From a virus (lineage: Duplodnaviria; Caudoviricetes): DNA of 31,034 bases. The notes under the pieces are model-generated. The model saw only the letters and a list, made by a program, of their open reading frames with translations. It did no database searches and had not been told where the DNA came from. The position numbers and the translations under genes are program-made. This document shows positions 1 through 31,034 of this stretch, piece after piece. Location of the stretch: positions 1-31,034 of IMG/VR virus record IMGVR_UViG_3300032295_000861; one strand, 5' to 3'. Position 1 is the first letter of the stretch; the number at the start of each line of letters is the position of its first letter.

Positions 1-123
1 AAGGTTGCAGATTTTGGCAACACAGACTCAGCAGAGCGTCAGAAGATTGGTTTCTATGATGAGAAGTTTAGAGCAATGTTCACAGATTTGCTAAACGCAG
101 GTGACTGGTATGATTTTTCAGGT
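1..123. repeat. Terminal direct repeat, copy 1 (circular assembly overlap)
   Basis: Bases 1-123 (aaggttgcag...ttttcaggt) are identical to 30912-31034, and a CDS reads in frame across the junction. Confidence 0.97.
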
Positions 124-186
124 GACAACACAATTGACATCACAGAGAAAGCACCTAGTCGTCAAAATCTAGTAAGAGTTAGATAA
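1..186 (+). CDS. 3' part of putative head-tail adaptor/connector (begins at 30579, wraps the junction, about 172 aa total)
   Basis: Frame 1 reads KVADFGNTDSAERQKIGFYDEKF...NLVRVR, stop TAA 184-186 overlapping the next ATG. It is in frame with the ORF at 30579 and lies directly after the capsid gene. Confidence 0.75.
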   Translation, partial: KVADFGNTDSAERQKIGFYDEKFRAMFTDLLNAGDWYDFSGDNTIDITEKAPSRQNLVRVR

Positions 187-578
187 TGAGAGCAGAACTG
201 TTATCATATCTAACCACAGCAACTTCAACGGCTACTATCAAGGTAGTCTCAGAGTTGCCTTGGAACACTGCTGGAGAGCCCTTATACATGAAGAACATGA
301 AGAAAATGTATCTGGATCAAACACAAGTCACACAGACTACTTTGATCCCTACCTTGAGTGGTGATGATGTATTTCAAAATGATCTAACTGTTACAGGATA
401 CTTTGCAGTAGATGCTAAGAATCAACCAACAGGCCTAAGTCAAGCCATTACCACTATATTAGGTGCGAAAGATAGGACAGGTATAACAAATTTCGGAAGC
501 GAAAGTGATTATACCACGGAGATACAAGACGATGTAATCATTTACACCGTTGAGTACAGATTAAACACCACAGCATAA
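186..578 (+). CDS. Putative tail terminator/tail completion protein
   Basis: 130 aa, between the head-tail adaptor and tail tube, with TAATG coupling. Assignment is by synteny and size. Confidence 0.55.
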   Translation: MRAELLSYLTTATSTATIKVVSELPWNTAGEPLYMKNMKKMYLDQTQVTQTTLIPTLSGDDVFQNDLTVTGYFAVDAKNQPTGLSQAITTILGAKDRTGITNFGSESDYTTEIQDDVIIYTVEYRLNTTA

Positions 579-594
579 CAAAAGGAGAACAACC

Positions 595-1083
595 GTGGCT
601 TATATTAATGTATCAGGAACTGGTGACTTCGCTACGCTACACATTAGCACAGCGACCATCGCCAGCACAACTGCAAGCACAGCAACTGGTGTTCTAAATG
701 TTTCTGGAATGCAAAACATTACCCTAAACAATGGTAATGGAACATTCCGTTGGAAACAATTAGACAGCACAAGTGAATACGCTGTTGCTATTGCGGCAAC
801 AAACCAACTCGGCTTAAATGTAGTCTTAGATGACTCTGCTTATTTCGGGGCAACAAGTGCAGACGCAAACAGCGCCACTGCCAAGGGCTTATTCAACCTA
901 TCAAACAACAAAACTCTGTTGTATTTTAGATTGTATTACCAAGGTACAGGTGCAGGCGACAAATATGTTTCAGGAACAGGTTATATTACAGGTCTAGCAC
1001 CTACAGTATCACCAGACAGTCCTGTATGGGTTAGCCCATTAAACATTGATGTTGTTGGCGACTTCACTTCAGGTTCAGTTTAA
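595..1083 (+). CDS. Major tail tube protein
   Basis: AAGGAG RBS and GTG start; 162 aa rich in Thr/Gly/Ser. The C-terminal 'YVSGTGYITGLAPTVSPDSPVWVSPLNIDVVG' is typical of siphovirus tube proteins. It is followed by a terminator and tail chaperones. Confidence 0.75.
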   Translation: MAYINVSGTGDFATLHISTATIASTTASTATGVLNVSGMQNITLNNGNGTFRWKQLDSTSEYAVAIAATNQLGLNVVLDDSAYFGATSADANSATAKGLFNLSNNKTLLYFRLYYQGTGAGDKYVSGTGYITGLAPTVSPDSPVWVSPLNIDVVGDFTSGSV

Positions 1084-1103
1084 TTTTAAATTGATTCAAA
1101 ACA

Positions 1104-1131
1104 GGCCCTATCTAAGTGGTAGGGCTTTTTT
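1104..1131 (+). terminator. Intrinsic terminator after tail tube gene
   Basis: GCCCTATC-taagt-GGTAGGGC stem followed by T6. Confidence 0.75.
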
Positions 1132-1153
1132 ATAAGTCTTGGGCTTTCAAGGT

Positions 1154-1159
1154 TAAATA
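1154..1159 (+). promoter_or_regulatory. T4-late-like promoter core TAAATA; leaderless start of the HNH gene
   Basis: ggtTAAATAtttgtATG: ATG 5 nt downstream with no SD sequence. Confidence 0.6.
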
Positions 1160-1164
1160 TTTGT

Positions 1165-1590
1165 ATGGATGCACTTAATAGATTTTATTCTTATGTAAAA
1201 AAAACTTCCTCTTGCTGGATTTGGCAAGGAAGTAAAAATAAATTTGGTCATGGAATGTTTAGTTTTAATGGAAAGACTTTGGGGGCACACAGATTTAGTG
1301 CTCAAATAGCAGGTTATAATATTGAAAACAAATGTGTTTGTCATCGATGTGATAATCCTAGTTGTGTTAATCCTAAGCATCTATTTGTTGGAACACAACA
1401 AGATAACATGATTGACAAATCAAAAAAAGGAAGGGCAACAGGCAGTAATGGAAAAAATGGAAAAAAGATTCAAACACCTGATGGAATCTTTGAAAGTAGG
1501 CTAGCGGCAGCAAAGCATTATGGAATTGATCCCTCATCAATTGGTAAGAGAATGGTGCGTTATCCTAGGGATTACTATTATATTCTGTAA
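1165..1590 (+). CDS. HNH homing endonuclease (HNH_3 type) with C-terminal HTH-like DNA-binding domain
   Basis: CWIWQG...AHRFS...VCHRCDNPSCVNPKHLFVGTQQDNM motif; C-terminal FESRLAAAKHYGI. Confidence 0.9.
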   Translation: MDALNRFYSYVKKTSSCWIWQGSKNKFGHGMFSFNGKTLGAHRFSAQIAGYNIENKCVCHRCDNPSCVNPKHLFVGTQQDNMIDKSKKGRATGSNGKNGKKIQTPDGIFESRLAAAKHYGIDPSSIGKRMVRYPRDYYYIL

Positions 1591-1593
1591 ATA
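1588..1593 (+). promoter_or_regulatory. T4-late-like promoter core TAAATA upstream of tail chaperone/tape measure genes
   Basis: TAAATA overlaps the HNH stop codon and precedes AAGGAAG and ATG 1620. Confidence 0.5.
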
Positions 1594-1619
1594 TCATTGA
1601 CTTATAGAAAGGAAGATAG

Positions 1620-1793
1620 ATGGATTTTAATCAATTAACTACACCAGAATTAGTTGATAGTATTTTAGGTGAAGTGGCCAAGACTCTAAATGAGATCCGT
1701 CACGCACAAGATGATTTAGACAAGGCTGAGAGTCGACTCAAGTTCGCACTGGCAGTCTTACACAATATTAGAGATAGAGATTTAAAGGAATAA
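1620..1793 (+). CDS. Small helical/coiled-coil protein (57 aa; not in ORF track)
   Basis: AAGGAAG RBS; MDFNQLTTPELVDSILGEVAKTLNEIRHAQDDLDKAESRLKFALAVLHNIRDRDLKE*, which fills the gap exactly. Confidence 0.8.
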   Translation: MDFNQLTTPELVDSILGEVAKTLNEIRHAQDDLDKAESRLKFALAVLHNIRDRDLKE

Positions 1794-1798
1794 GATTT

Positions 1799-2143
1799 AT
1801 GGATATCAAACAATTAGCCCGCAAACCCCAACTTATAGAAATTCGTCTTGATGATGATAATCTAGTAGCAGAATATGGTGAACCTATCACTTTCTGGATG
1901 GTAGACTATGTAGATATTAATACCTACTTTGATTTTTTTAAGAGTCAGTCGGACAAATCAGGGCAAGAACTAAACAACCTAATGCGTAAAATTATTCTCA
2001 ATGCTGAAGGCAAACCTGCCCTTGGCAATGATGAAGGATTGCCTATTGACATTAGCATTGCGGCATTGACTAAGATCAATGAAACGCTGGGAAAGTCAAA
2101 GACCAAGTCGTTGATCCAAAGCAGTGGGACACAGCCAAAATGA
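1799..2143 (+). CDS. Tail assembly chaperone (lambda gpG-like)
   Basis: Lies between tube and tape measure genes and has the G GGA AAG slippery site near its 3' end. Confidence 0.75.
   Translation: MDIKQLARKPQLIEIRLDDDNLVAEYGEPITFWMVDYVDINTYFDFFKSQSDKSGQELNNLMRKIILNAEGKPALGNDEGLPIDISIAALTKINETLGKSKTKSLIQSSGTQPK
2089..2095 (+). other. Programmed -1 ribosomal frameshift site GGGAAAG
   Basis: Same heptamer as lambda G/T and correctly phased. The -1 frame is open from 2089 into ORF 2140-2331. Confidence 0.85.
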
Positions 2144-2331
2144 TATCAATTGGGCACATTGCAAAGACCTACGGATTACTCCCTAGTGAAGTTGCAAGCC
2201 GTGCCACTACATTTGATATTATGATTACAGATGTGTATTCGACTTGGGAAAACTATCAAAAGAATCCTACTGCTATGAGTAATTTTAGTCAAGAACAACT
2301 GGCTGAAATTATAAAAAGAGGGAAAGAATGA
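2140..2331 (+). CDS. Tail assembly chaperone extension (gpT-like part of a G-T fusion of about 177 aa)
   Basis: In the -1 frame relative to 1799-2143, with no stop between the slippery site and this ORF. Confidence 0.7.
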   Translation: MISIGHIAKTYGLLPSEVASRATTFDIMITDVYSTWENYQKNPTAMSNFSQEQLAEIIKRGKE

Positions 2332-2606
2332 TGGCTGGACAAATTAACTTTAGAATTAATCAGATCAAAGGTATCTTAGATCCTTTGAAGATGGCCAAGG
2401 AAGCACACAAGGTCTTCAGGGCAAACACACCTATTAGGTCTGGTAATGCTAGACGCAATACCAACCTATATCAGGATACCATTGAAGCCAACTATCCTTA
2501 CGCACAGAGATTGGATCAAGGTTACAGTAAACAAAGGCCTGACGGAATGACCAAGCCAACAATGACATTTCTTCAGAATTATGTTAAAAAGAATTTAGGA
2601 AAATAA
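2328..2606 (+). CDS. HK97 gp10-like tail/neck component
   Basis: 'ANTPIRSGNARRN...NYPYAQRLDQGYSKQRPDGM' matches the P-x-x-[TS]G...YA..LE.G.S.QAP.G pattern of this family. Confidence 0.7.
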   Translation: MMAGQINFRINQIKGILDPLKMAKEAHKVFRANTPIRSGNARRNTNLYQDTIEANYPYAQRLDQGYSKQRPDGMTKPTMTFLQNYVKKNLGK

Positions 2607-2607
2607 T

Positions 2608-4755
2608 ATGGCAACCGTAGAAGAATTTAAAGTTAAAGTCACCACACAAGGCGTTGAACAACTTGATCGCTTGGGCAAAGTTAGTGATACTGTAAGGACT
2701 AAGTTATCAAGTCTAGGCACTACCATTGCAGGATTGGCCTTTGGTGGTTTTATTCAAGGTGCCATATCAGCCGCAGAACGCATTGATGATCTAAGCAATG
2801 CTACTGGTATTGCCGTAGGTACATTACTAGGGTTTGAACGAGCCCTAGATATTGCTGGTGGTAAGGCGGAGAATGCTGGTCGTGTTATCATGAGTTTCTA
2901 CAATGCCATTGAAGCAGCCAATGATGGTAGCCTTAAGGTTAGAGATGCTTTTAATAAAGTTGGTGTCAGCCTTGATGATCTAAGAAACAAAAGTGAAGCA
3001 GACCTATTACAGCAGACTGTACGGGGTCTAAGTGAATTAGAAGCAGGCAGTGAGCGTGCCAGTATTGCCACAACCTTACTGAGCAGAGCATTCCGTTCTG
3101 TTGATCCTAAACAGTTTCAGCAGGCATTGGCCACTGGTGACTTTAGTCAATTAGAAAAAAGTGTTCAACAGTCTGCAGCAGCCGCTGAACGCCTACAGTT
3201 GTCCTACAAAAATCTACAGATGGGCGCACTACAGGCAATTCAACCTATTATTGTGTTAATGGGTGACACTGAGGTAGGTGTTGAGAAAGCAAGATTGGCT
3301 GTATATGCTCTAGGCGCAGTATTTGCTGTGGCCATGGGAGCCAGTCTAATTAGAAACATTGCTACAATTAATAAGGCATTGGGAGTAACTGCGGCATTAA
3401 GCAACCTAGTTGGCAAAGGTCCTGTGGGTCTAATTGCCAAACTGGCTCTACTTGGTGGAGGGGCTGCTATAGCAGCCACACAATTAGATGATCTTATGGC
3501 GGCCAATGAGCGTCTTGAAAAGTCTATGGCTGATGGTGCAACTCCCGCACCTGAAAGTGGTAATGCTGGCAGAACACAAGAACTTGATGCTAGACAAAAA
3601 GCCGTATTAGAAAGTGGTAAGAGAGCAGCACAAAATCTTGCTGATGCTCAACTTCAAATTAGTTTAAGAAGTGCTAGTGAAATTGAACGCATTGAACTTG
3701 AAATGCGTAACAATATTGCCAAAGGTGTAGAAGAAATTAGATCAAAATCAGATTTAAGCGAAAGTGTAAGAGCCAAAGAAATTCTTTCGTTAGTTAGTAA
3801 AGAAACTGAAAAATCTTATTCTGATATTGCTAAGATTCGAAGAGACATTGATATAAAAGTTGCTACAGAGACCATGGCTCAAGCAGAACAAGATGCTAAA
3901 GAAATGGCTGCTTATTATCAACAAGTTGACCAGGCAAGATTACAGGCATTTGATCAAGTTGATGCGATTAAAAAACAAACTGAAGAATTACAAGGCCGCT
4001 TTGATTTAACTCAAAAGATTCTTGATTTAAGCACAACTGAACAAGAAAGACAAACTAAGTTATTTGATCTAGAGCAACAGAGAAAAGCCACTCTTGATGC
4101 TATTTCTAAGATCAAAGATTTACCCAACAATGAAAGACTTAGAAGAGAACAAGAACTCAATGCTGAATATGAAAAACGAATTGATCTGATTAACAAAGAA
4201 GCAGATGCAAGAAATGCCCGTGAACAAGACTTCTCTGCAGGCATTAGAGAATCAATGAAACGATATGAAGAATCATTGACTCCTCTCAAGCAGGGTCAAC
4301 AAATGGCCGAGAGTGTGTTCAGTAGCATGGGTTCAGCATTGGACAAGTTTGTTGAGACTGGTAAGTTTAACTTTGGTGACTTTGCCAAGAGTGTTATACA
4401 AGATTTGATTAAAATTCAATTGAGAGCCGCAGCCACACAGTTATTGAGCGCAGCGTTTGGTTCATTTTTTCCAATACCAGGCAAGGCCAATGGTGGTCCA
4501 GTGCAATCAGGACAACCTTACATAGTCGGTGAACGAGGTCCAGAATTGTTTATGCCTAACTCAGCAGGAACAATTGTTCCCAACGATAAATTATCAGGCG
4601 GTGCAGGCAGTGCTGGTGGATCTACAGTCAACAACTATTATACTATTAGTGCAATTGATGCCAAGTCCGTGGCTCAATTATTTGCAGAAAATAAAATGAC
4701 GCTACTAGGTACAGTTCGTCAGGCAGAGAAAGAACTGCCATTTAGAGGAAGATAA
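2608..4755 (+). CDS. Tail tape measure protein
   Basis: 715 aa, Ala/Leu/Glu-rich and helical, with the lambda-like C-terminal motif 'ANGGPVQSGQPYIVGERGPELFMP'. Confidence 0.92.
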   Translation: MATVEEFKVKVTTQGVEQLDRLGKVSDTVRTKLSSLGTTIAGLAFGGFIQGAISAAERIDDLSNATGIAVGTLLGFERALDIAGGKAENAGRVIMSFYNAIEAANDGSLKVRDAFNKVGVSLDDLRNKSEADLLQQTVRGLSELEAGSERASIATTLLSRAFRSVDPKQFQQALATGDFSQLEKSVQQSAAAAERLQLSYKNLQMGALQAIQPIIVLMGDTEVGVEKARLAVYALGAVFAVAMGASLIRNIATINKALGVTAALSNLVGKGPVGLIAKLALLGGGAAIAATQLDDLMAANERLEKSMADGATPAPESGNAGRTQELDARQKAVLESGKRAAQNLADAQLQISLRSASEIERIELEMRNNIAKGVEEIRSKSDLSESVRAKEILSLVSKETEKSYSDIAKIRRDIDIKVATETMAQAEQDAKEMAAYYQQVDQARLQAFDQVDAIKKQTEELQGRFDLTQKILDLSTTEQERQTKLFDLEQQRKATLDAISKIKDLPNNERLRREQELNAEYEKRIDLINKEADARNAREQDFSAGIRESMKRYEESLTPLKQGQQMAESVFSSMGSALDKFVETGKFNFGDFAKSVIQDLIKIQLRAAATQLLSAAFGSFFPIPGKANGGPVQSGQPYIVGERGPELFMPNSAGTIVPNDKLSGGAGSAGGSTVNNYYTISAIDAKSVAQLFAENKMTLLGTVRQAEKELPFRGR

Positions 4756-4757
4756 AC

Positions 4758-5408
4758 ATGAGCCTACAAACTATCATTAACATTGCAGAGAGCATAACAA
4801 TTAATCGTAGGAGAGTTATAGGTGTGCAATATACACGAAATGAAATTGCTCGTGTCAGCGAAACACCCACAAGAAATCCATGGCGCATGACTGTTACTGT
4901 CAGTGCTCTAATACCTTATGCACAAGGTCGACAACTTATAGAAGAATTAGATAGATTAGATCGTAGCATACCACAAACAGTTACATTCAGCAATAATCCT
5001 AAATTAAGTTTTATGTTCAAGTATCAAGGTGATTTCCCCACAAACATTGCCACAATGACTGTACAAAGTGCCAGCGGAAAACAAGTTGTTTTAACCAATC
5101 TATTGGTAGTTGATCCAACTGATGTTGTATTTTATGCAGGTGATATTATACAATTTGCGGGATATCCATATCCATTTACAGTTACACAAACTGTACAAAG
5201 AGGAAGCGGAAACACAGTTACGCTGTCCTTGCATAGACCTATATTTTTAGACACAGCAGATCTTGTGGGCAGTAATATCCTAGTAGGCAATTCTGTTAAT
5301 TTCCGTATGCTATGTGCCAACATGCCTACATATACAATTGTACCAGGACCGTATATACAGTTCAATGGTGACTTTGAATTGTATGAATCTACAGGAGCAA
5401 TTGTATGA
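4758..5408 (+). CDS. Putative distal tail protein
   Basis: Directly follows the tape measure gene; 216 aa, beta-rich. Confidence 0.55.
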   Translation: MSLQTIINIAESITINRRRVIGVQYTRNEIARVSETPTRNPWRMTVTVSALIPYAQGRQLIEELDRLDRSIPQTVTFSNNPKLSFMFKYQGDFPTNIATMTVQSASGKQVVLTNLLVVDPTDVVFYAGDIIQFAGYPYPFTVTQTVQRGSGNTVTLSLHRPIFLDTADLVGSNILVGNSVNFRMLCANMPTYTIVPGPYIQFNGDFELYESTGAIV

Positions 5409-6046
5409 TTAGTATTCCAGATGTAGTTGACAAAGAACGAGTCAGCAGTGCAGAGTTTGTTAAATTAACTGTTAAGAATACCAACACCACTGTTACCTAT
5501 ACTTTCTCCACAGCCTATAAGACAGAAACTATTAGTAGTGTAGAATATGCTGCTCTTGGTGGATTGTTAGCCATTGGTCAACAGCAACGAGATCTAAGAG
5601 TCACTAGTTTTGATACTACAATTGCACTTGCAGGTGTTGATCCAGAAAATATTTTTATTGTGCTGGGTAATCAAATTCGTGGAAGTAGCATTGAGATCAG
5701 TCGTGGCTTTTACAATGACAATGGAATATTAGGATCAGTCTATAATAGATTTAAAGGCATTGTGACCAGTTATAATATTACAGAAACTCGTGAAGGCCAA
5801 GATGATTCATTTAATATTGTAATTAATTGTAGCAGTTACAAAACTGTATTAGAAAATAATGTGGGTGGTCGTAAAACAAATCAGGATGATTGGAAGTTCT
5901 TGTATGGAAACACAGATACTAGCATGGACAATGTGTCTAATCTAGCAGGTGCATACTTTGACTTTGGTCTTCCTGTTACAGGTGGCTCAGGTGGTACTAC
6001 TGTTAATCCTGACACTGCTCCCGCAACTGTCACTGAACAACCATAA
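5405..6046 (+). CDS. Putative tail hub/minor tail protein
   Basis: Position in the tail-tip cassette; 'IEISRGFY...RFKGIVTSYNI' is hub-like. Confidence 0.55.
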   Translation: MISIPDVVDKERVSSAEFVKLTVKNTNTTVTYTFSTAYKTETISSVEYAALGGLLAIGQQQRDLRVTSFDTTIALAGVDPENIFIVLGNQIRGSSIEISRGFYNDNGILGSVYNRFKGIVTSYNITETREGQDDSFNIVINCSSYKTVLENNVGGRKTNQDDWKFLYGNTDTSMDNVSNLAGAYFDFGLPVTGGSGGTTVNPDTAPATVTEQP

Positions 6047-6047
6047 T

Positions 6048-6500
6048 ATGAAAATAAGATTTGCAGATAGATTTGATATACCCTACTTGATCCGTATGAT
6101 GTTGGACTATAGAAATTATAGTCCTGTTGAAAGATTAAGATATTGTGAAAATACAGAACATGCTGAAAGATTGTTTGATCAGATTCTAGCAGGTCGAGGC
6201 ATTGCCTTGGTCGCTGAAAAAGATAATTTACTAGTAGGTATGTTGATAGCAGTTAGAACTCCAAATGCTTGGGATCCAGATATTTGGGGAATACAGGAAT
6301 TGGCCTATTGGGTCGATCCAGAACACAGAACAAGTTCAGCAGGTTATAAGTTATTGAAAAAATATCAACAATTCTGTGAACAAGCCAAAGAATTAGGTAC
6401 AATTGATTATTATACAATTAGTAAAATGGTCAATAGTCCAGATCTTAGTTATGATAGATTTGGATTTAAAAAGATAGAAGAAACATGGAGTGTAACATAA
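6048..6500 (+). CDS. GNAT-family acetyltransferase-like protein
   Basis: True start is probably ATG 6048 (MKIRFADRFDIP...). 'LVAEKDNLLVGM...ELAYWVDPEHRTSSAGYKLL' resembles the GNAT acetyl-CoA binding motif A. Confidence 0.75.
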   Translation: MKIRFADRFDIPYLIRMMLDYRNYSPVERLRYCENTEHAERLFDQILAGRGIALVAEKDNLLVGMLIAVRTPNAWDPDIWGIQELAYWVDPEHRTSSAGYKLLKKYQQFCEQAKELGTIDYYTISKMVNSPDLSYDRFGFKKIEETWSVT

Positions 6501-6501
6501 T

Positions 6502-9500
6502 ATGCCAGTCTTTACAGCAGCAGCGGCCTATATAGCGACCGCAATTGGAGTTACCAGCGCATTTGGTATTGCAGCCATTGGATTTGGTATTAGATTAGTC
6601 ACAGCCTATGTTGTTTCTAGTATTATTGCCAATAGATCAGGAGCAGGAGCAGGTGGGAATCAACAAGCCGCCGCTGTTGGTAACAGAGTACAATTAGCCC
6701 CTAATACCACTAATAAAATTCCTGTAGTATATGGCAGTGCTTTCATGAAGCCAATATCAATAGATGCTAAGATCAGCACTGATCAACAGTACATGTGGCA
6801 TGTGCTAGCATTCAGTGAGGCCATGGAGTCTGATTCTATCGGAACATTTAGTTTCGGGGACATTTACTGGGGTGATAAGAAATTAGTATTTGATGAAACT
6901 GATCGCACCAAGGTAACAAGTTGGATTAACAGCGATGGTGAAACTGAAACACAACCTGATGGATTGTTAAATGTCTATCTATATCGTGATGGTTCAAGTC
7001 GTCCTCTTAACACCACAAGCACAGCAATTCAAGTACTAAGTGATGCAGGTATTGCAGAAGCCAATCGTTGGGATTCTACAAAACTAATGACAAAATTAGT
7101 ATTTGCCATTGTTAAGATCAAATATGATCAAGAAAAAGGTATTACAGGTCTAACTGAAATAACTGCAAAAATTACCAACACCTTGTCAAGTCCTGGAGCA
7201 GTAATCTTAGACTACTTGACAAATACTCGCTATGGTGCTGGCCTAGATTCTACTTCCGTAGATACTACAAGTTTAACAGCATTGAATAATTATGCTGCTC
7301 AAACTATAAGTTATACTCCTGCAGGCGGCGGAGCAGCACAGACAATGAATAGATATAGTATCAATGGACCTGTTGATACTACTCGCAATTTCTTAAGCAA
7401 TATTGTAGATATCTGTGATAGTTGCGACAGTTGGATACAATGGAATGAAGTAAAAGGACAGTGGGCTGTTATTATCAATCGCAGTTATCTAGACACTGAT
7501 CCAACCAGCGCCAATCTAATGCAGATTGATGATAATCAAATTGTTGGTGGCATTGATATCAATCCTATTGATTTAAACAGCACCTACAACAGTGTTCGAG
7601 TTGAATATCCCAATACAAGGATCAAAGATCAAGCAGGCTACCATATCATTACCTTAGAAGAATTTCCTAATTTAATGCGTAGTCCCAACGAACCTGACAA
7701 TCAGTTAAGTCTAACACTGCCTTATACAAATACAGTTATTCAAGCACAATACATTGCTGCTCGTAGATTGTTACAAAGTCGTGAAGACTTGGCCATTAAC
7801 TTTACCATGGACTACAGTGGCATTCAATTAGAAGCAGGTGATGTTATTGGTATCCACCATAATTGGTATGGTTGGGGTAGATACAGCGAAACTGTGGCAA
7901 TGCCATATGGTAAACTATTCCGCATTGCACAAGTTCAAGAAGGCAAAGCAGATGATGGCAGTTTATATGCCCGCATCACAGCCAGTGAATACAATGATGG
8001 TGTCTATGATGACGACAGCATTGATCTAGCAGATTTTATACCTGAACCTAACACAGGTATTAGCGATCCAGGCATTTTAACTAATTTAAATGCACCGACT
8101 ATTGTCAATATTAATCCCAAAGATCAAATTCCTAACTTTACTGTTAGAGCAGCAATACCTAGTACAGGCAATGTGCAGGCAGTGGAATATTGGTATGGAA
8201 CTACAGAAAGTCAAAGCAACAGCGTATATAAACTCTATGGTTTAGACTATCCTGCCAATACTAGTTTTTTCCCAAGATCAAGTACCAGCACACAACTAGT
8301 TACAAGTCTAAGCACAGGAACTTATTATTTCCGTGTTAGAGGAGTAGGTATTCGCCGTAAGACAGCATTTAGTAGTGCAACCAGCATTGCTTGGGCACCA
8401 GAATTTGTCAGCAGTGTAAGTGGATTACAATTTGGTGTTCAATTCCAACCACCTAGTATCGGTGTTCCTAGATTCAATAGTACTACCAGCAACACAGTTA
8501 CAACAAACTTGTCTGTGGTTAATCCCAAGGCCTATGGTACAGCAGGTGGAGCAGTTGTTCCATTTGTATTGGCCACAAGTGACAGTGATCCATTATTTGT
8601 CAACAACAGTTGGCGTATTGGTGCCAGTAGCAGCACTGGCTATCTAAGCACAGGTGCATTGACCACAAGCAGTATTGGATTTACAGCCACAACAATATCA
8701 ACCACTACAGATAATGGTGTGCAATTAGGCAATCCTACATTTATTACCAGCAGTACAGCCGCTGTTACAGTTCCTGTTCGATATAAGGACGGTGGCGGTA
8801 ACATTGTTCAAGCAGCACCCGCAACACAACAATTCTACATTGTTGATCCCGGTATCAATGGTAATACTCTGTATAGGCCTAGAGTTTATTTTAATGTGCC
8901 TATTAATGGAACCACTGTTACAATTTCAGGTGGTACATATAATAGAGAAACATTCGGTTGGGATTCAAGGCCAGTTACTAGATACGGTGCTCCTCCATAT
9001 ACCTATGTGGACAACTATGACTATGCTGTTGCCCTAACAACTGGCAGTTATAGATACACTGCCATGGCAGATCCTGTTTATACAACTACAAACTTTGGTT
9101 CATATGGCGCTACTTGGTCTACAGGTGTTCAAATTGAAGCAGGATTTGGTCCTAGAGGTTCTGATGGAGTAAGTCCAAGTTTCATTGACTTTGATTACAG
9201 CCAAGGAACTACTTTTGTCAAGAGCACTAGTAATCAATTTACTCCACAAAGTATTACAATTAGAGCAACTGCTACCAATATAAGTTTTGCTTTGTTTGAT
9301 TGGTCAATAACAGGTGCTGCTATTGCAAGTACCAGCACTAGTGTATTCCCTGGCGATACTGTCACGGTATATCCAAGTACAACCAGCAATAGAATTGTAT
9401 TAAGTGCCACAGCAGGTGGATTTAATAAGAGTATTACACTGCCAATTATTAGTTTGGCAGCAGATGGAACCAAAGGTGACCCAGGAGATCCAGGTGATCC

Positions 9501-20509: not shown

Positions 20510-20518
20510 GTAAATAAT
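20490..20518 (+). promoter_or_regulatory. Composite promoter: TTGACA -35 plus TAAATA/AATAAT
   Basis: TTGACA 20490-20495, TAAATA 20511-20516, and AATAAT at 17-nt spacing (20513-20518). Confidence 0.6.
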
Positions 20519-20521
20519 ATA

Positions 20522-20712: not shown

Positions 20713-20727
20713 GGCAATTTTAGCCTC

Positions 20728-20761
20728 TTTACAGGCCTAATTTTTTAGTCTATACTAAATA
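20728..20761 (+). promoter_or_regulatory. Composite promoter: sigma70-type TTTACA-17-TATACT overlapping TAAATA
   Basis: TTTACA 20728-20733, TATACT 20751-20756, TAAATA 20756-20761. Confidence 0.6.
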
Positions 20762-22093: not shown

Positions 22094-22519
22094 ATGGCAA
22101 GAAGTAAACATCCATTATACAAAACACACTATCAATGGTGGCGTGCCTGTAATACACCTGGAGTTGGACATTGGAATCAATATGGCGGTCTAGGTGTTAA
22201 AATGTATCGACCATGGAATCAACTCAAACTGGGTTTTGATCGTTTCGAGCAATGGGTTCTAGATCATTTAGGTCCAAGACCATTCCCTGAAGCAGTACTT
22301 AGAAGAATTGATACTACAGGCGATATCAAACCCGGTAATCTAATGTGGAGCACAAGACAGCATCTGTGCAACACTCGCAAGACCAACTTGATGATTAAAA
22401 TCAATGGTCAAAAAAAGAGTCTAGCAGATTGGGCTAGACATTACGGTAAAAATTATGACGCAGTCTACAGCCGAATTGTTGACTACGGATTTAAACCCAA
22501 GGACGCATTGACAAAATGA
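22094..22519 (+). CDS. Divergent HNH-like protein with C-terminal HTH
   Basis: 'YGGLGVKM...W...F..W...LGPRP...LRRIDTTGDIKPGNLMW' resembles the phage 'YGGRGI...DRIDN.G.Y.P.NCRW' family; 'KSLADWARHYG' HTH. Confidence 0.7.
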   Translation: MARSKHPLYKTHYQWWRACNTPGVGHWNQYGGLGVKMYRPWNQLKLGFDRFEQWVLDHLGPRPFPEAVLRRIDTTGDIKPGNLMWSTRQHLCNTRKTNLMIKINGQKKSLADWARHYGKNYDAVYSRIVDYGFKPKDALTK

Positions 22520-22656
22520 TCTCAACTGGCACTAACTTAAAATCTATATTGAATTCAATATATCCCCCACAGAAAATATATCCCACAATACCCACATGGC
22601 ATTACAGTCATGGCACACCGTACCCATCGACCAAGGAACAAAATGAAAACAAGTAA
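22516..22656 (+). CDS. Possible small protein (46 aa; not in ORF track)
   Basis: ATGA overlap with the upstream stop; MISTGTNLKSILNSIYPPQKIYPTIPTWHYSHGTPYPSTKEQNENK*. Confidence 0.3.
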   Translation: MISTGTNLKSILNSIYPPQKIYPTIPTWHYSHGTPYPSTKEQNENK

Positions 22657-22972
22657 TAGAGGACGGAAGCCCGGCCCATTCCCCGCAGGTTGGCATTATA
22701 AAGAGCCCATGCTGCATGAACAACACATTGCATTTCTTAGACAGAAAGCACAGGCCAAGTTTCGCAATGAACCATGGGATTTGACCATTGAAGAATATTT
22801 TAAATTATGGACACCTGAACTGTGGGTGCAAAGAGGAAGAAAGGCCACTGACCTTTGCATGATACGAATAGACACAAATCTTGCTTGGAGAACGGACAAT
22901 GTGGAAATTGTTGAACGATACTATCAACTCACAGTGGTACAAGGTAAAATCCCCAAAAGGAAACAAGGATGA
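22643..22972 (+). CDS. Divergent HNH-like protein
   Basis: AAGGA RBS before ATG 22643. 'AKFRNEPWDLTIEEYFKLW...RGRKATDLCMIRID...WRTDNVEIV' resembles phage beta-beta-alpha-metal-fold proteins. Confidence 0.6.
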   Translation: MKTSNRGRKPGPFPAGWHYKEPMLHEQHIAFLRQKAQAKFRNEPWDLTIEEYFKLWTPELWVQRGRKATDLCMIRIDTNLAWRTDNVEIVERYYQLTVVQGKIPKRKQG

Positions 22973-25081: not shown

Positions 25082-25087
25082 TAAATA
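25082..25087 (+). promoter_or_regulatory. T4-late-like promoter core TAAATA; leaderless start of terminase operon
   Basis: TAAATAtcgttATG (5-nt spacing), no SD sequence. Confidence 0.6.
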
Positions 25088-25092
25088 TCGTT

Positions 25093-25551
25093 ATGGAAGA
25101 ACAACCAAACGATATTCCCACCTCCGATCAACAGTTACCAAATTATGAAGTAATTGCATTAGAGCCGGAGCCCCCTGTTGATCCCTCTAAGACTGGCAAT
25201 AAACCCAAACAACTTAAAGCCATTGAAGTCTATGGTTATGAAGTGGGTCGTGGTAATCGCAAGAAGGTAGTCACTCCTGAAGACATATACAAACTAGCAA
25301 GTATTGGCTGCACTGACAGTGAAATAGCCCGCTGGTTTGACATAGCAGAAAGCACACTAAAATACAACTTTAGTGAAATCCTTGCAAAAGGTCGTGAGGA
25401 TATCAAGATGGCACTCCGCCACGCTATGATTAAGAATGCCCTAGGTGGCAATGCTGTAATGCAAATATGGTTATCGAAGAATTGGTTGGGAATGTCAGAC
25501 AATCCAACTAACACTGATGCCAATGCTCCTTTACCATGGACTGAGGAATAA
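25093..25551 (+). CDS. terS: Terminase small subunit
   Basis: HTH 'LASIGCTDSEIARWFDIAESTL' and 'GGNAVMQIWLSKNWLGMSD'; directly upstream of TerL. Confidence 0.85.
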   Translation: MEEQPNDIPTSDQQLPNYEVIALEPEPPVDPSKTGNKPKQLKAIEVYGYEVGRGNRKKVVTPEDIYKLASIGCTDSEIARWFDIAESTLKYNFSEILAKGREDIKMALRHAMIKNALGGNAVMQIWLSKNWLGMSDNPTNTDANAPLPWTEE

Positions 25552-26786
25552 TGCCACTTAGTCTAGCACAAGACACTATTGCCAAGTGTAAGAATCGTTT
25601 TATCACAGTTGTAGCAGGTCGTAGATTTGGCAAGACACATTTAAGCATTCGTCAACTGTGTTACCACGCTAAAGAACCTGATCGTAATGTTTGGTATGTT
25701 GCCCCCACATACAGACAAGCCAAACAGATTGTGTGGCGTAAGTTAAAGAATAAACTGCAAGATCTCAAGTGGACCAAACGAGTTAATGAAAGTGAACTTA
25801 CCATTGAACTTAAGAATGGAAGTCTAATATCACTTAAAGGTGCTGACAATGCCGACTCCTTAAGAGGTGTTGGTCTAGACTATCTGGTCATGGATGAGTT
25901 TGCAGACATTGATCCTGAAGCATGGTATGAAGTACTTCGTCCTACACTAGCAGACAAAGAGGGTGGTGCTCTATTCATCGGCACACCCAAAGGTCTGGGC
26001 AACTGGGCACATGACCTATACAATATGCCCACAGAGCAACCTGAGCAGTGGGCCAGTTTTCAATACACTACCATAGATGGCGGCAATGTTAAACCTGAAG
26101 AGATTGAAGCAGCCCGCAGGGACTTAGACGAGCGAACATTTAGACAAGAGTTTCTAGCAACCTTTGAAACTTATGCTGGCAGAATATATTACGCATTTGA
26201 TCGTAAGAAAAACATAACCACACTGACTGACATTAAGACTGATGTTATACACATTGGTATTGACTTTAACATTGACCCTATGTCAGCAGTGATAGCAGTT
26301 CAATTTAAGGACTATCTCTATGTCATCGACGAAATCCGTATGTTTTCTAGTAACACCCAAGAACTTGTGGCAGAAATTAAGGCACGATACCCAGCAAGCA
26401 GGGTCTGGGCATATCCTGACCCAGCATCGAGGCAAAGGAAAACATCAGCGGGCGGCGCTACTGATCTCACCATACTACAGAACGCAGGATTTGTCTGCAA
26501 AGCACCCAATGCACACACACCAGTTAGAGACAGGATCAACGCAGTTAACTCAAGATTAGGCAATTCTGCTGGCGAATCTAGACTGTTAATTGCTCCAAGT
26601 TGTAAATATACCATAGAAGGTCTGGAGCGACAAACCTATAAAGAAGGTACTGTTCAACCTGACAAAGAATCAGGTTACGATCACCAAATGGACGCATTGG
26701 GATACATGGTGGATTATATGTTCCCTGTTCGCAGAGATACTGCACCATATACACCACAACGATGGGGCCATCAATTGGCTGCATAA
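25551..26786 (+). CDS. terL: Terminase large subunit
   Basis: Walker A 'AGRRFGKT', 'YVAPTYRQAK', Walker B 'LRGVGLDYLVMDE', 'IGTPKG', and nuclease motifs 'GIDFNIDP' and 'DHQMDALGY'. Confidence 0.97.
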   Translation: MPLSLAQDTIAKCKNRFITVVAGRRFGKTHLSIRQLCYHAKEPDRNVWYVAPTYRQAKQIVWRKLKNKLQDLKWTKRVNESELTIELKNGSLISLKGADNADSLRGVGLDYLVMDEFADIDPEAWYEVLRPTLADKEGGALFIGTPKGLGNWAHDLYNMPTEQPEQWASFQYTTIDGGNVKPEEIEAARRDLDERTFRQEFLATFETYAGRIYYAFDRKKNITTLTDIKTDVIHIGIDFNIDPMSAVIAVQFKDYLYVIDEIRMFSSNTQELVAEIKARYPASRVWAYPDPASRQRKTSAGGATDLTILQNAGFVCKAPNAHTPVRDRINAVNSRLGNSAGESRLLIAPSCKYTIEGLERQTYKEGTVQPDKESGYDHQMDALGYMVDYMFPVRRDTAPYTPQRWGHQLAA

Positions 26787-26801
26787 CAAGGAAATACATA
26801 A

Positions 26802-28361
26802 ATGAGCGATCAAACATTAAGCCAAGACTTTGCACGAGTCTCAACTACAAACTTAGAATACAGCCGCAACAGAGATCGTTGGGCTTTTCTATTAGATTCA
26901 TATGTAGGTGGAGATCAATACAAGCAGGGCACCTATCTAACCCGCTATCAACTAGAGACAGCACAAGAGTATAATGGTCGCATCAACAACACACCATTGA
27001 TCAATCATTGCTCGTCAATTATCTCAGTTTACACCAGTTTCCTATTCCGTGAAGAACCAGATAGAGACTTTGGCACATGGCAAGGCCGCCCTGACCTAGA
27101 AGCATTCTTAGAAGACTGCGACATGGAAGGCAGAGACCTAGACTCATTCATGAAGGATGTGGCAACTTGGAATTCAGTGTTTGGCCATTGCTGGTTGTTA
27201 ATGACCAAACCCAACATTGGTGCTGCCACACAAGCAGATGAACAAGTCTTAGGACTACGACCTTGGCTTAACCTATTAACACCATTGGCTGTATTAGATT
27301 GGACTTGGGAGCGAACACCCACTGGCTACTATGAATTAACAGAGTTCAAATACATTGAAGAAATTGTTGACAAGATCACTATTGTCAAAGAATGGACCAA
27401 GTCAGAGATCCGCACTTGGGTCATGGATGATCAAAATAAGAAAGCCGCACTAAAAAGCATAGAAGTTAATGGACTAGGTATGATACCTGCTGTACTGGCC
27501 TATAACAAGCGCAGTATTGTCAAGGGCATTGGTGTTAGTGACATTGCTGACATTGCTGATCTACAGCGTATGATCTATAACTTGACCAGTGAATTAGATC
27601 AAAGTCACAGACAAGACGGACATCCCAGCCTTGTAGTCACACCTGATGTACAGTATGGCAGTGGTGCTGGTGCTGTAATAGTTGTGCCAGAAAATAGTGA
27701 TCCTGGCCTAAGACCTTATTATCTAGAGCATGGTGGTGCTAACATTGTCAGTCTACACAACACAATACAAAAATTAGTGGACAACATTGACAAAATTGCC
27801 AACACTGGTGGAGTTCGTGCTACAGAAAGCAGAACACTGTCAGGTGTAGCCATGGAAGTTGAATTTAGTTTGTTGAACAGTCGTCTTGCTGAAAAAGCAG
27901 ATAACTTAGAACTTGCTGAAGAACAATTATGGGCAATATTTGCAGCCTATCAAGGATTAGATTCCTCAGAGGTAGAAGTAGAATATCCAGGCAGTTTCAA
28001 CATCCGTGATGATCAACGAGAATTCCAGCAACTGGCCAGTGCCAAGTCAGCGGCCACTGATCCTGTATTATTGCGTGTCATTGACGAAAAACTATTAGAA
28101 ATGTTAGGTGAAGAAAAAGAAAGATTGCCCTACATTGATATCAATCCTATCCCAGGTAGAACATATCCTGATGGCCAAGCAATCCCAGAGAGTCTACCAC
28201 CATTATACATAGACAGCGCAGATCCACAAGTCCCTGAAGGACAGAACTGCCAAGGTTGCGAATATTATAAATCCACTGAAGGTTACTGTACCAAATTTGA
28301 TGCACTAGTCCGTGCTACTTGGTGGTGTGCGAAATTCGAGCCCGCAGAAGAGGACTATTGA
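26802..28361 (+). CDS. Portal protein with C-terminal HiPIP-like 4-Cys extension
   Basis: Follows TerL; SPP1-like portal features ('NGLGMIPAV', 'GVSDIADIADLQRMIYN', 'SGVAM'); C-terminal C-x2-C-x9-C-x12-C. Confidence 0.9.
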   Translation: MSDQTLSQDFARVSTTNLEYSRNRDRWAFLLDSYVGGDQYKQGTYLTRYQLETAQEYNGRINNTPLINHCSSIISVYTSFLFREEPDRDFGTWQGRPDLEAFLEDCDMEGRDLDSFMKDVATWNSVFGHCWLLMTKPNIGAATQADEQVLGLRPWLNLLTPLAVLDWTWERTPTGYYELTEFKYIEEIVDKITIVKEWTKSEIRTWVMDDQNKKAALKSIEVNGLGMIPAVLAYNKRSIVKGIGVSDIADIADLQRMIYNLTSELDQSHRQDGHPSLVVTPDVQYGSGAGAVIVVPENSDPGLRPYYLEHGGANIVSLHNTIQKLVDNIDKIANTGGVRATESRTLSGVAMEVEFSLLNSRLAEKADNLELAEEQLWAIFAAYQGLDSSEVEVEYPGSFNIRDDQREFQQLASAKSAATDPVLLRVIDEKLLEMLGEEKERLPYIDINPIPGRTYPDGQAIPESLPPLYIDSADPQVPEGQNCQGCEYYKSTEGYCTKFDALVRATWWCAKFEPAEEDY

Positions 28362-28671
28362 TATCAGGACCAGTCCATTGATTTCTGACTCTCTTTTTAT
28401 TTTTCATATCATCCATATTCTCTTGGTGGGTGCCTAAAAATAAATGAGCAGGATTGATACAACGACGATTATCACAACTATGACAAACATCCATATTATC
28501 AGGAAGGTGCCCATTGGCAAGCAAGAATGCCAATCTATGTGCGGCATATCGTTTTCCGTGATACCACGCTTGTCCATAACCCCAAATGGTAGTTGTCTTA
28601 CTCCACTCCCAACAATCGTTTGGAGTTTTTATTGTAGAATTAAAAATGTTTTCAGGTGTATTCTTTCGCAT
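28315..28671 (-). CDS. HNH endonuclease, reverse orientation, overlapping portal 3' end
   Basis: CWEWS...AHRLAF...VCHSCDNRRCINPAHLFLGTHQENMDDM. Confidence 0.9.
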   Translation of the reverse strand: MRKNTPENIFNSTIKTPNDCWEWSKTTTIWGYGQAWYHGKRYAAHRLAFLLANGHLPDNMDVCHSCDNRRCINPAHLFLGTHQENMDDMKNKKRVRNQWTGPDINSPLLRARISHTTK

Positions 28672-28709
28672 ACTGCTAATGATACACTATTTTATAAAGG
28701 AAGTCAATC

Positions 28710-28784
28710 ATGAACAATCCATTACCAGTTCGCGGCATGAGAACCGCTAAGAACAAAAAGCGTCCTAAGCCGCCTAAGAAATAA
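28710..28784 (+). CDS. Tiny basic peptide (24 aa)
   Basis: AAGGAAG RBS; MNNPLPVRGMRTAKNKKRPKPPKK*, with TAATG coupling to the next ORF. Confidence 0.6.
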   Translation: MNNPLPVRGMRTAKNKKRPKPPKK

Positions 28785-28933
28785 TGCCAATACATCGAGC
28801 AACAGGCCCTAGAGGCGGCAAAGGTTATCAATACGGCACACAAGGGAAAGTATATCCCACCCGTGCTCAGGCAGTAAAACAAGCACAAGCCATCAAGGCA
28901 TCACAGGCTGCTGCCAAGAAAAAAGGCAAATAA
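28784..28933 (+). CDS. Small basic protein (49 aa)
   Basis: MPIHRATGPRGGKGYQYGTQGKVYPTRAQAVKQAQAIKASQAAAKKKGK*. Confidence 0.7.
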   Translation: MPIHRATGPRGGKGYQYGTQGKVYPTRAQAVKQAQAIKASQAAAKKKGK

Positions 28934-28965
28934 GCCTAAAGTTTAACGATTTATACCAAGTTCGT

Positions 28966-28971
28966 TAAATA
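28966..28971 (+). promoter_or_regulatory. T4-late-like promoter core TAAATA upstream of scaffold/capsid
   Basis: gtTAAATA in the intergenic gap, then GGAGG RBS and ATG 29009. Confidence 0.6.
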
Positions 28972-29008
28972 ACATATTAAACAACTCTGAAAGGGAGGCA
29001 CGCTTACT

Positions 29009-29680
29009 ATGAGCAACCAAGACATAGGCAATCTGGACAATACTGATGAGTCCACTACAAATAATCAGGCCGCAGTCAAAACTTACACACAAGAGGAATT
29101 TGATCAGCACATGGCAAGGATGAAGGCCAGCATATCTAAAAAATATGAAAAGACCTTTGCCGAACTAGGTGATATCGATGAACTTAAGACACTCAAGCAA
29201 CAAGCAGAACAGCGTAAGCAAGAAGAAAGTGTCAAGCGTGGTGAATTTGAAAAAGTTCTACAAGATATGGCAGCAAAGAAAGATGCTGAAATTCAGCGTC
29301 GTGATCAAATTATTAGAGAATATACTGTGGATGTGCCATTGGTTACAGCAGCAGCAAACTACAAGGCAGTCAATGCCGAGCAAGTTCGCACACTGTTAAA
29401 ACCCAGTGTTCGTCTAGGTGAAGATGGTCAAGTGGAAATCGTTGACAAAGAAGGAAAAGTTAGATATAACGATTCGGGTCAGCCTTTCAGAGTAGATGAT
29501 TTAGTCAAAGAATTCCTTGACACTAATCCTCACTTTAAGTCAGCAACACCAGCCACCTCCTCAGGCAAATCTAATATTGGTCAAAAGCAAGATAAGGTTG
29601 ACATTTCTAAATTGAATATGTCTAACCCAGAAGACCGTAAGATTTACGCACAATATCGTAAATCAAACGGTATAGCCTAA
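29009..29680 (+). CDS. Capsid scaffolding protein
   Basis: 'KTYTQEEFD' motif, long charged coiled coil, directly before the capsid gene. Confidence 0.85.
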   Translation: MSNQDIGNLDNTDESTTNNQAAVKTYTQEEFDQHMARMKASISKKYEKTFAELGDIDELKTLKQQAEQRKQEESVKRGEFEKVLQDMAAKKDAEIQRRDQIIREYTVDVPLVTAAANYKAVNAEQVRTLLKPSVRLGEDGQVEIVDKEGKVRYNDSGQPFRVDDLVKEFLDTNPHFKSATPATSSGKSNIGQKQDKVDISKLNMSNPEDRKIYAQYRKSNGIA

Positions 29681-29700
29681 CAAATTAAAGGAGACTTAAA

Positions 29701-30564
29701 ATGGCTGGATCTACAATGACAACTTTGAACGACTTACTACCTACCATCGTTCAAGAAGCATTATTCGTTGCAAGCGAGCGCAGTATCATGCGCGGTATTG
29801 TAAAAAATTATTCTTTGGGCCCTGCTCAAGGTAAAACAATTCAGGTTCCAATTTACCCAATTCAGACTGCTGTAGCAGTTACTGAGGGTGATGAGGTATC
29901 TAACACAGAAGTATCTACCAATGTTGCTACATTTGATGTTGCACAAGTTGGTATCCGTACTCTAGTAACTGACATGGCATTGAACGCAAGTTCTAGCAAT
30001 GTCGTTGCTGACCTAGGCCGTTTATTCGGTGACGCTATTGCTCGTAAGATGGACCAGGACTTGATTGCCAAGTTCAGTTCTTTCACTTCTAACACTGTTG
30101 GTTCTACCAGCACAACTATTACTCCAGCATTATTGATGCAAGCCATCACTAAGTTGAAGAATGGTGCTGTTCCTACAGATGGTTTAGTTTGTGTATTACA
30201 CCCAAGCGTAGCCTATGACTTAAAAGCAGCATTGACTACACAAGGTAACACAGCGTTTGGCGCCAATGGCACAAGCAATGATGTTGCCAATGAAGCAATG
30301 CGTGAAGGTTATGTTGGTCGTTTGTTCGGTGTTCCAGTATTTGAAACATCTAACTTCTCTAACACTGGCGCTGCTGGTGACTTTGTTGGTGGTATTTTCC
30401 ACCGTGACGCTCTAGGCCTAGGCATTATGCGTGACATTCAGATCGAAACACAACGCCGTGCTAGTTACCTAGGCACTGACATTGTTGCTTCTGCTATGTA
30501 TGGTACTGGTGTTGTCTATGAAGGTTACGGTTGTGCCGCAACTTTCGATTCTACAGTTCTTTAA
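29701..30564 (+). CDS. Major capsid protein (HK97 fold)
   Basis: AAGGAG RBS; 287 aa; 'GKTIQVP', 'AIARKMDQDL', 'VLHPSVAYDL', 'GYVGRLFGVPVFETSN'. Confidence 0.93.
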   Translation: MAGSTMTTLNDLLPTIVQEALFVASERSIMRGIVKNYSLGPAQGKTIQVPIYPIQTAVAVTEGDEVSNTEVSTNVATFDVAQVGIRTLVTDMALNASSSNVVADLGRLFGDAIARKMDQDLIAKFSSFTSNTVGSTSTTITPALLMQAITKLKNGAVPTDGLVCVLHPSVAYDLKAALTTQGNTAFGANGTSNDVANEAMREGYVGRLFGVPVFETSNFSNTGAAGDFVGGIFHRDALGLGIMRDIQIETQRRASYLGTDIVASAMYGTGVVYEGYGCAATFDSTVL

Positions 30565-30578
30565 TTAGGGGAAATATA

Positions 30579-31034
30579 ATGGCATTCATTACTTCAGGTA
30601 GTACAGTTATAAGTTTTGCTGAATATGAAGATGTTCTAGCAATTGACCAACGCCTATTTGAGGCTAATGAAGGCTTTACTGATGTTATTGTTGAGGATGC
30701 GTTGATCAAAGCGACCACTCGTATCCTTAACAAGATTAGAGCCAGTGACTGGTGGAAGAATTACTATATCAGTAGAACTACTGATTTGAGTAGCATTGCC
30801 ACTAGGACTGGTTATAGTTTGCCTAGTCCAGTTGGTGCTAAGATTCTAACCCGCAAGGACGAGTTTCAAGACATGTGTGTTTATTTCGCACTTGCTGAAT
30901 ACTTGTACCCCAAGGTTGCAGATTTTGGCAACACAGACTCAGCAGAGCGTCAGAAGATTGGTTTCTATGATGAGAAGTTTAGAGCAATGTTCACAGATTT
31001 GCTAAACGCAGGTGACTGGTATGATTTTTCAGGT
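30579..31034 (+). CDS. 5' part of putative head-tail adaptor/connector (continues through the junction to stop at 186)
   Basis: ATG 30579 (MAFITSGSTVISFAEYEDVLAIDQRLFEANEG...), open to the end of the window. Confidence 0.75.
   Translation, partial: MAFITSGSTVISFAEYEDVLAIDQRLFEANEGFTDVIVEDALIKATTRILNKIRASDWWKNYYISRTTDLSSIATRTGYSLPSPVGAKILTRKDEFQDMCVYFALAEYLYPKVADFGNTDSAERQKIGFYDEKFRAMFTDLLNAGDWYDFSG
30912..31034. repeat. Terminal direct repeat, copy 2
   Basis: Identical to 1-123. Confidence 0.97.

Follow-up and report, generated by a model that had tools for sequence, protein, structure and literature searches.

The IMG/VR record IMGVR_UViG_3300032295_000861, flagged as bearing direct terminal repeats, is a 31,034-nucleotide stretch of a tailed virus (hereafter the window, meaning this stretch at its full length), in which a packaging and head operon, a set of neck and long-tail genes and a block of small genes are punctuated by TAAATA motifs resembling the late promoters of T4-like phages (Table 1). 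Its initial annotation had read it as a closed phage genome that builds its own virion, has no replication, lysogeny or lysis genes, and is a candidate satellite of a large T4-like phage.

Genome closure and gene content

Comparison of the ends revealed a 123-base identity, yielding a circle of 30,911 bp with an open reading frame (ORF) running across the join. Moreover, a second, duplicate record (G006) spans the join and is 100% identical to the window across 20,951 bp, and seven further records with direct terminal repeats have the same size and gene order. Given the overlap and the second record identical through the join, the circle is real. The alternative of a mis-assembly, raised at the outset, or of a defective remnant of a larger genome could appeal to the metagenomic source of the record and to an overlap of a length typical of assembly k-mers; against the identity over the join, the seven similar terminal-repeat records and the intactness of all core genes, it is very improbable, and mis-assembly is largely refuted.

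Matches to PHROG and Pfam families identify TerS, TerL, portal, scaffold, major capsid, neck, tape measure, distal tail, hub and fibre genes; the tail tube, terminator and chaperone are named from position only. Among 44 scanned and four re-cut ORFs, the same libraries gave no polymerase, primase, helicase, single-stranded DNA-binding protein, recombinase, integrase or repressor family, and the sole “sigma factor” row is a weak match (E 0.014) on the helix-turn-helix of TerS. The 44 ORFs include five HNH-family genes and an acetyltransferase, about 12 small ORFs are without any family, and the longest ORF between 19.2 and 25 kb has 176 amino acids (aa). No tRNA genes were found in the window, and Rfam at gathering score yielded nothing in it, with chance rows only for the two RNA elements described below. 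Hence, the earlier claims of a closed genome with a full head, tail and packaging set, of a non-structural block with all ORFs below 180 aa, and of missing replication, recombinase, integrase and repressor families are upheld.

Table 1. Features of the window, in positions counted from its first nucleotide
Feature	Position	Strand	Basis or remarks
Terminal overlap	1..123, copy 30912-31034	.	end identity
Neck and long-tail genes	186..19247	+	PHROG/Pfam, position
Tail tube	595-1083	+	position only
Two late-type TAAATA sites	1154..1593	+	1154 (HNH gene ATG at +11); 1588 (ahead of conserved 57-aa gene)
Free-standing HNH endonuclease genes (n=4)	1165-1590, 19439-19951, 21502-22032, 28315-28671	+, -, +, -	PHROG/Pfam
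Chaperone	1799-2143	+	position only
Tape measure	2608-4755	+	family match
Distal tail	4758-5408	+	family match
Hub-region genes	5405-10524	+	family match
Late-type TAAATA ahead of distal tail/fibre operon	10834..10839	+	
Collagen-like fibre	13888-18522	+	PHROG/Pfam
LamG protein	18522-19247	+	PHROG/Pfam
Holin-like small membrane protein	19952..20191	+	weak XhlA match; family in 10 records; no endolysin adjoining
TAAATA and 100-aa cysteine-rich orphan gene	20196..20509	+	ATG at +11
Predicted small RNA	20511..20715	+	TAAATA overlapping TTGACA-17-AATAAT; 5′ stem from +11, two loops, terminator; no Rfam family
Sigma70-type TTTACA-17-TATACT overlapping TAAATA	20728..20761	+	ahead of replication slot
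132-aa helical protein	20807..21205	+	replication slot; no known family
Conserved structured non-coding element	21160..21430	+	covarying pairs
Conserved HNH-fold gene pair	22094..22972	+	behind TATAAATA at 22068; 13 and 17 records
Late-type TAAATA before TerS	25082..25087	+	ATG 11 nt after first base; predicted leaderless mRNA
Packaging/head operon	25093..31034	+	PHROG/Pfam
TerS	25093-25551	+	family match
TerL	25551-26786	+	family match
Portal	26802-28361	+	family match
Late-type TAAATA before scaffold/capsid genes	28966..28971	+	
Scaffold	29009-29680	+	family match
Major capsid	29701-30564	+	family match
Head-tail adaptor-position gene	30579 over join to 186	+	position and conservation (family in 27 other records)

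Late-type promoters in the window and its relatives

Searches of IMG/VR matched 37 stretches with the capsid and 159 with the terminase, 80 of which were kept; 25 rebuilt records, DSL-LC06, two cultured pelagiphages and one 21-kb locus were brought together, with the relatives' genes called by a simple caller of our own. The 30 sequences compared comprise 26 members of the group (the window and its duplicate included) and four autonomous kin (HTVC111P, HTVC202P, G009 and G010). Whether the autonomous kin are nested in the group or are its sister differs between the TerL, capsid and portal trees, and hence we claim no order of events.

In the window, TAAATA occurs at 11 plus-strand sites (10 intergenic) versus two minus-strand sites (none intergenic); between genes it ranks first among all hexamers (binomial p 5e-12; p 0.004 against dinucleotide shuffles, mean 3.2), although it is not over-represented genome-wide. 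Of the T4-late-like promoters first described, the TAAATA core, which precedes the head and tail operons and is confined there to the coding strand, stands as the common element, but the full T4 TATAAATA is present at just two of the 11 plus-strand sites. Across 25 group sequences, copies of TAAATA no more than 70 nt from an ORF start number 128 forward versus 21 reverse, and 24 versus 4 in a T4-like cyanophage control; the same count gives 9 versus 18 for HTVC111P/HTVC202P and 5 versus 7 for G009/G010, a comparison that is not blind, as the split between group and kin was drawn from gene content and the TAAATA motif itself.

The T4 late promoter consists of TATAAATA at -13 to -6 with no -35 element, and phage Aeh1 uses CTAAATA (PMC1524935, PMC7892883); thus, 11 nt after the first base of TAAATA corresponds to +1. 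A gene-start ATG stands exactly at this distance from the first T at 21 of 346 group sites, with a second cluster at 23–28 nt, and at 3 of the 13 sites in the window, as against 0–3 ATGs for six control hexamers not overlapping TAAATA and none at 201 sites of the autonomous kin. The same spacing recurs in the gp55-encoding, T4-like pelagiphage HTVC008M (9/112 sites) and in jumbo-myophage loci (10/163, with another seven at 10 nt); as a side observation, these phages appear to produce many leaderless late mRNAs (ATG 10–11 nt after TAAATA), unlike the tested cyanophage. Leaderless mRNAs are likewise predicted for the group, mostly for TerS, the ATG of which stands at exactly 11 nt in 8 of 20 records; of 22 records, 21 have TAAATA no farther than 90 nt from the scaffold start. 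Across the group, a sigma70 -35/-10 pair accompanies none of the 100 structural-gene TAAATA sites versus 5 of the 74 others. A general sigma70 scan did not rise above chance (31 versus 23.7, sd 5.4), and single early promoters are therefore inferred from position. Between the early block of the window and the TerS promoter, a terminator-like hairpin (25015-25040) marks the boundary. An archaeal TATA box as an explanation of the motif is ruled out by the ATG at 11 nt, the lack of an upstream purine element, and the Shine-Dalgarno and sigma70 signals. Judged by their sequence, the sites are gp55-type late promoters in their TAAATA core, their +1 at 11 nt and their lack of a -35 element. The same promoter grammar is found in 24 related genomes, a check that the initial annotation had suggested.

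The factor that would read these promoters is not recognizable in the group: six-frame searches for gp55 (phrog_234) and the jumbo-phage late sigma (phrog_12791) found neither in any of 23 records, with phrog_12791, itself related to gp55 at 7e-16, matching the jumbo record G032 at 1e-79 as a positive control. Similarly, tblastn gave no match to gp55, gp33, gp45, gp43, gp32 or gp59 in the 30 sequences; a search for the sliding-clamp family matched nothing anywhere, jumbo records included, and is hence uninformative. TAAATA promoters without a recognizable reading factor of their own make the window likely to be a satellite that needs a co-infecting large phage. Accordingly, the initial proposal that late transcription depends on an outside sigma is strengthened by a promoter geometry that is that of gp55-type phages and is absent from the autonomous kin.

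No non-structural gene family is common to all records of the group. The commonest are those of the pair at 22094..22972, namely a PacI-like HNH-fold protein (17 records; fold match with Z 6.2, rmsd 4.1 and 94 aligned residues) and an HNH-family protein (13 records). Judged in alignments against the HNH catalytic motif, both have apparently lost the usual catalytic residue, and we predict that they are DNA-binding regulators.

Lysis and integration

No endolysin family was detected among the scanned and re-cut ORFs of the window, nor any lysis family among 239 accessory proteins from 23 relatives (PHROGs; one representative per family plus all singletons, 60–600 aa) or, in Pfam, among 161 hand-picked from the 239. 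As a control, the same library gives in the sister G009 an endolysin at 1e-20, along with Sak, an exonuclease, NinB/G and a helix-turn-helix protein, and the HTVC111P-type pelagiphages are annotated with a lysozyme or peptidase M15. However, the claim that the window has no lysis genes must be qualified for the gene at 19952-20191, the product of which has a C-terminal hydrophobic stretch and a weak XhlA/hemolysin-type match (E 0.008 in both libraries) and may plausibly be a holin. We also note a 67-aa protein (24322-24525), present in G011 too, with a lipoprotein-type signal (a hydrophobic stretch followed by SGC), which could be an exclusion lipoprotein or part of a spanin.

The earlier view that the window lacks lysogeny is likewise borne out: no integrase family is present, and neither the GTDB match nor the best 80 of 123 metagenome loci display an integrated, host-flanked copy. 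These loci are on contigs of at most 32 kb, with one exception, a 50.6-kb tandem duplicate. The single matching GTDB genome contributes a 28-kb contig, a group member (L130) binned in a Porticoccaceae metagenome-assembled genome, which could be either a binning artefact or a hint of the host.

A variable replication slot

In most records, the tail genes are followed by TAAATA, a structured RNA, a terminator, a sigma70 promoter overlapping TAAATA and then a variable slot. This slot carries primase and helicase genes in G004 and G007, and a 341–359 aa protein in G012, G017, G018, G022 and G003 (cut), the modelled fold of which is similar to those of family A polymerase domains and of proteins fused to helicases (TM 0.57–0.60, below our bar for naming). 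The G018 version (L145:8905-9945) and its relatives are stand-alone, ~345-aa, family A polymerase-like proteins with YDI, K-x-IINA and HDG motifs and without a Pfam or PHROG family; their nearest predicted structures, from Preplasmiviricota clusters, carry a fused D5-type helicase. In G002, G003, G015, G016 and DSL-LC06 the slot holds long conserved non-coding regions, one of which, of ~450 nt (L043:4921-5380 in G002; also in G003, G015 and G025), is up to 90% identical and has no Rfam match.

In the window, the slot encodes a 132-aa protein, a candidate initiator, which had no Atlas match, folded only like generic helical bundles and had no longer homologue among 8000 scored candidates. It is followed by a 270-nt element conserved in seven distinct loci and G005, with two-sided changes in 14 of 29 predicted pairs, which by its position is a candidate origin or primer RNA. 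The slot with its structured element would thus constitute an origin module fired by host or helper enzymes.

A predicted small RNA and the search for a helper

The small RNA predicted ahead of the slot (~20522-20715) has a first loop, UAACGCCAUU, complementary to Shine-Dalgarno/ATG-GCN-NTA starts, and a second one that could pair with TTTGACAG of the leader that follows; several records have a second loop matching TGACAG in this leader. A GCCAU loop is found in 13 records, its complement reading as a ribosome site plus ATG-GCN-(T/G/A)T. The start-codon loop did not have better targets in its own genome than in foreign ones, and an exact search with the window's seed retrieved nine loci with no recurring target. 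The seed common to G011 and G016 retrieved 56 loci: six are one tail sheath start behind TAAATA (identical in sequence and hence one event) on phage fragments estimated at ~350 kb, nine are another unrelated phage gene and two are the RNAs themselves. In six jumbo loci, A-ATG-GCN-(T/G/A)TA occurs at 4 of 98 gene starts, all four of them sheath genes, evidence that is post hoc and partly circular, as any anti-Shine-Dalgarno/anti-ATGGC loop favours such starts.

We treat the sheath-start complementarity as a lead to the helper. The best helper candidates are jumbo myophages of ~350 kb that encode a gp55-related late sigma, no less than T4-like phages, narrowly defined, of the kind initially proposed. 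Tracing a helper through common genes yielded only distant or in-group matches (HNH 1165-1590, the 100-aa orphan, the fibre tip and the LamG protein), and blastn of 19.2–25.6 kb against annotated phages gave short HNH matches only.

Other features of the window

The minus-strand HNH gene at 28315-28671 overlaps the end of the portal gene, and four mobile-type HNH genes per 31 kb are many relative to the related genomes. Between the tail tube and the chaperone, a 57-aa coiled-coil gene (1620-1793) with its own late promoter is kept in 16 records and has no family. The final 110 aa of the fibre (17602-18522 region) are conserved in ~50 contigs, mostly of the window's group, and appear to be a group signature and a candidate attachment or assembly domain. 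A 34-nt inverted repeat (24564-24597/24974-25007) pairs the 5′ leader with the 3′ end of the transcript for an 82-aa gene at 24628; G015 carries such a repeat pair with matching changes on both arms, and the second arm coincides in part with a sigma70-like promoter at 24966.

Comparison with known satellites and phages

Several known systems share traits with the window. MiniFlayer and MulchRoom are satellite phages of Streptomyces that, like the window, have their own capsid and packaging genes, no recognizable primase, an HNH gene and a small membrane protein; MiniFlayer is likewise non-integrating, and the helpers of both are large virulent phages (PMC10690885). They differ in having 20–26 genes, with short fibres in MiniFlayer and a tail apparently made by the helper in MulchRoom, whereas the window has a full long tail with a tape measure; their helper dependence is demonstrated, whereas that of the window is inferred and would be written in its late promoters, the term “promoter” being absent from the paper on these satellites (PMC10690885). 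Ando and the EPIPs are without tails or capsids (PMC13587820, PMC12822802), which sets them apart from the complete long tail and apparent promoter-level dependence of the window's group. Unlike P4, phage-inducible chromosomal islands (PICIs), cf-PICIs and PLE, the window has no integrase or chromosomal residence and itself encodes its virion, including the tape measure, distal tail, hub and fibres; the initial annotation had pointed out the reverse arrangement in P4, PICIs and PLE.

A small RNA is reportedly present in the PLE of Vibrio cholerae. This element offers a possible analogy for anti-helper tools, namely that small RNA and the endonuclease-derived DNA-binding protein CapR, a repressor of the helper capsid operon that the HNH-fold pair recalls; PLE, however, integrates and takes virion parts, neither of which the window does (PMC8096241). 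In T4, gp55/gp33/gp45-dependent late transcription uses the same -10-only promoter, TAAATA core and +1 distance, with factors that are not encoded in the window (PMC7892883, PMC1524935).

The closest cultured kin are the HTVC111P-type pelagiphages (TerL 50–52% and capsid 45–49% identical), which have a similar size and gene order and also no polymerase gene. They have DnaD-domain, helix-turn-helix and lysozyme/peptidase M15 genes and a divergent early arm, and they show no TAAATA bias; neither a lysin of its own nor a DnaD/helix-turn-helix early module is found in the window. DSL-LC06 (proposed “Nanhuiviridae”), a 29.8-kb metagenome-assembled genome, belongs to the same group, with the HNH-fold pair, TAAATA before the scaffold and other operons, and likewise no annotated lysin or replication gene, though its tail-tube subfamily differs; the part of its report used here treats it as an ordinary phage and does not mention dependence (PMC10611076). 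Among the main texts of open papers, we found none on a satellite of this type with T4-like/gp55 late promoters. Satellites with their own capsid are already known; what would be new is a phage satellite virus with a complete long tail and promoter-level dependence.

A proposed tailed satellite of late-sigma-encoding phages

From the closure and gene content, the position and geometry of the promoters, their conservation in the group and their absence from the autonomous kin, we propose, with a probability of about 0.65, that the window is a non-integrating, fully tailed satellite virus of large phages that encode a late sigma, expressing its head and tail and being released only in a co-infected cell. 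It would enter with its own tail, whereupon host sigma70 would drive a few early units (the small RNA and the replication slot), and enzymes of the host or the helper would copy its DNA, starting at the structured element (21160-21430). The helper's gp55-type late sigma would then switch on the terminase, head and tail genes, and lysis would come through the helper's endolysin, perhaps timed by a holin-like protein of the satellite itself. The small RNA and the two HNH-fold proteins could tune its own early genes or damp the helper's late genes.

Several observations weigh against this proposal. The related genomes are non-independent samples; the cyanophage control shows the TAAATA motif without the 11-nt peak (0/132); G005 and G007 encode a putative metallopeptidase; and most small ORFs are family-less, only two having been folded, so that a cryptic activator or lysin is conceivable. 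The window between 17.5 and 31 kb shares no DNA with five jumbo records, and no accessory or fibre genes could be traced to large phages, their origin being the group itself. Furthermore, seven relatives have primase-type genes at one slot, which means that replication dependence is not a shared trait, and HTVC111P-type phages, which have no polymerase gene, are reported to grow on pure hosts (bioRxiv 10.1101/2019.12.14.876532), so that a missing polymerase alone means little. With a 132-aa gene and a structured element in the window's own slot, the idea that replication comes from the helper is not sustained, and replication may need only the host. Whether relatives lack the same genes, a check suggested at the outset, has a positive answer for the late sigma (0/23) and the endolysin (0/239) and a negative one for the primase-type genes. 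The virophage-like hyperparasite first envisaged thus keeps its outside late sigma, its missing endolysin and its lack of integration, but not helper-derived replication as stated; the best-supported dependence is on late transcription and lysis.

A rival view is that the window is an autonomous lytic phage, replicated by host enzymes from an RNA-primed or small-protein origin, with an own small protein or host sigma reading TAAATA and a novel lysin or wall-synthesis inhibitor working with the holin-like protein. The dozen family-less ORFs would leave room for such factors, the window has sigma70-type early promoters, a holin-like gene and a candidate origin, and the polymerase-less HTVC111P-type phages were isolated on Pelagibacter. 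Yet no non-structural gene is kept in all records, the commonest have HNH rather than sigma folds, the promoter geometry copies that of gp55-type phages, and the kin that keep a lysin lack the TAAATA bias; we therefore hold this view to be unlikely, at perhaps one chance in five.

Less likely still is a variant that overlaps with the satellite proposal, in which the genome resides in a plasmid-like carrier state replicated by host enzymes, and a superinfecting late-sigma phage induces virions, serving only late genes and lysis; such a resident may protect the host population. The slot with its primase-type genes or long structured non-coding regions, the complementarity of the RNA loop to the slot leader, seen in several records and reminiscent of antisense copy control, and the confinement of sigma70 promoters to non-structural units speak for such a state, but PHROG and Pfam scans of the window and its relatives found no partition, repressor or addiction family, and GTDB genomes yield the single match.

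Going further, we tentatively suggest, with rather less than even confidence, a widespread family of 27–32 kb tailed satellites of T4-like and jumbo myophages that parasitize late transcription and lysis, exchange protein and RNA origins, and restrain the helper through a late-induced small RNA acting on its sheath/tube start and through disarmed HNH proteins. These would be overlooked bacterial counterparts of virophages, which could be picked out of metagenomes from their promoters only. At least 25 genomes of this kind emerged from one query, and the group is widespread and aquatic. Most of the phage satellites known so far steal parts of the virion, and searches find them through integrases and primases; if the satellite proposal is true, this group is invisible to such searches and has been counted among ordinary small phages. 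A late promoter without its sigma offers a sequence-only test for helper dependence, which would predict which large phages are parasitized and bear on what limits jumbo and T4-like phages in lakes and seas.

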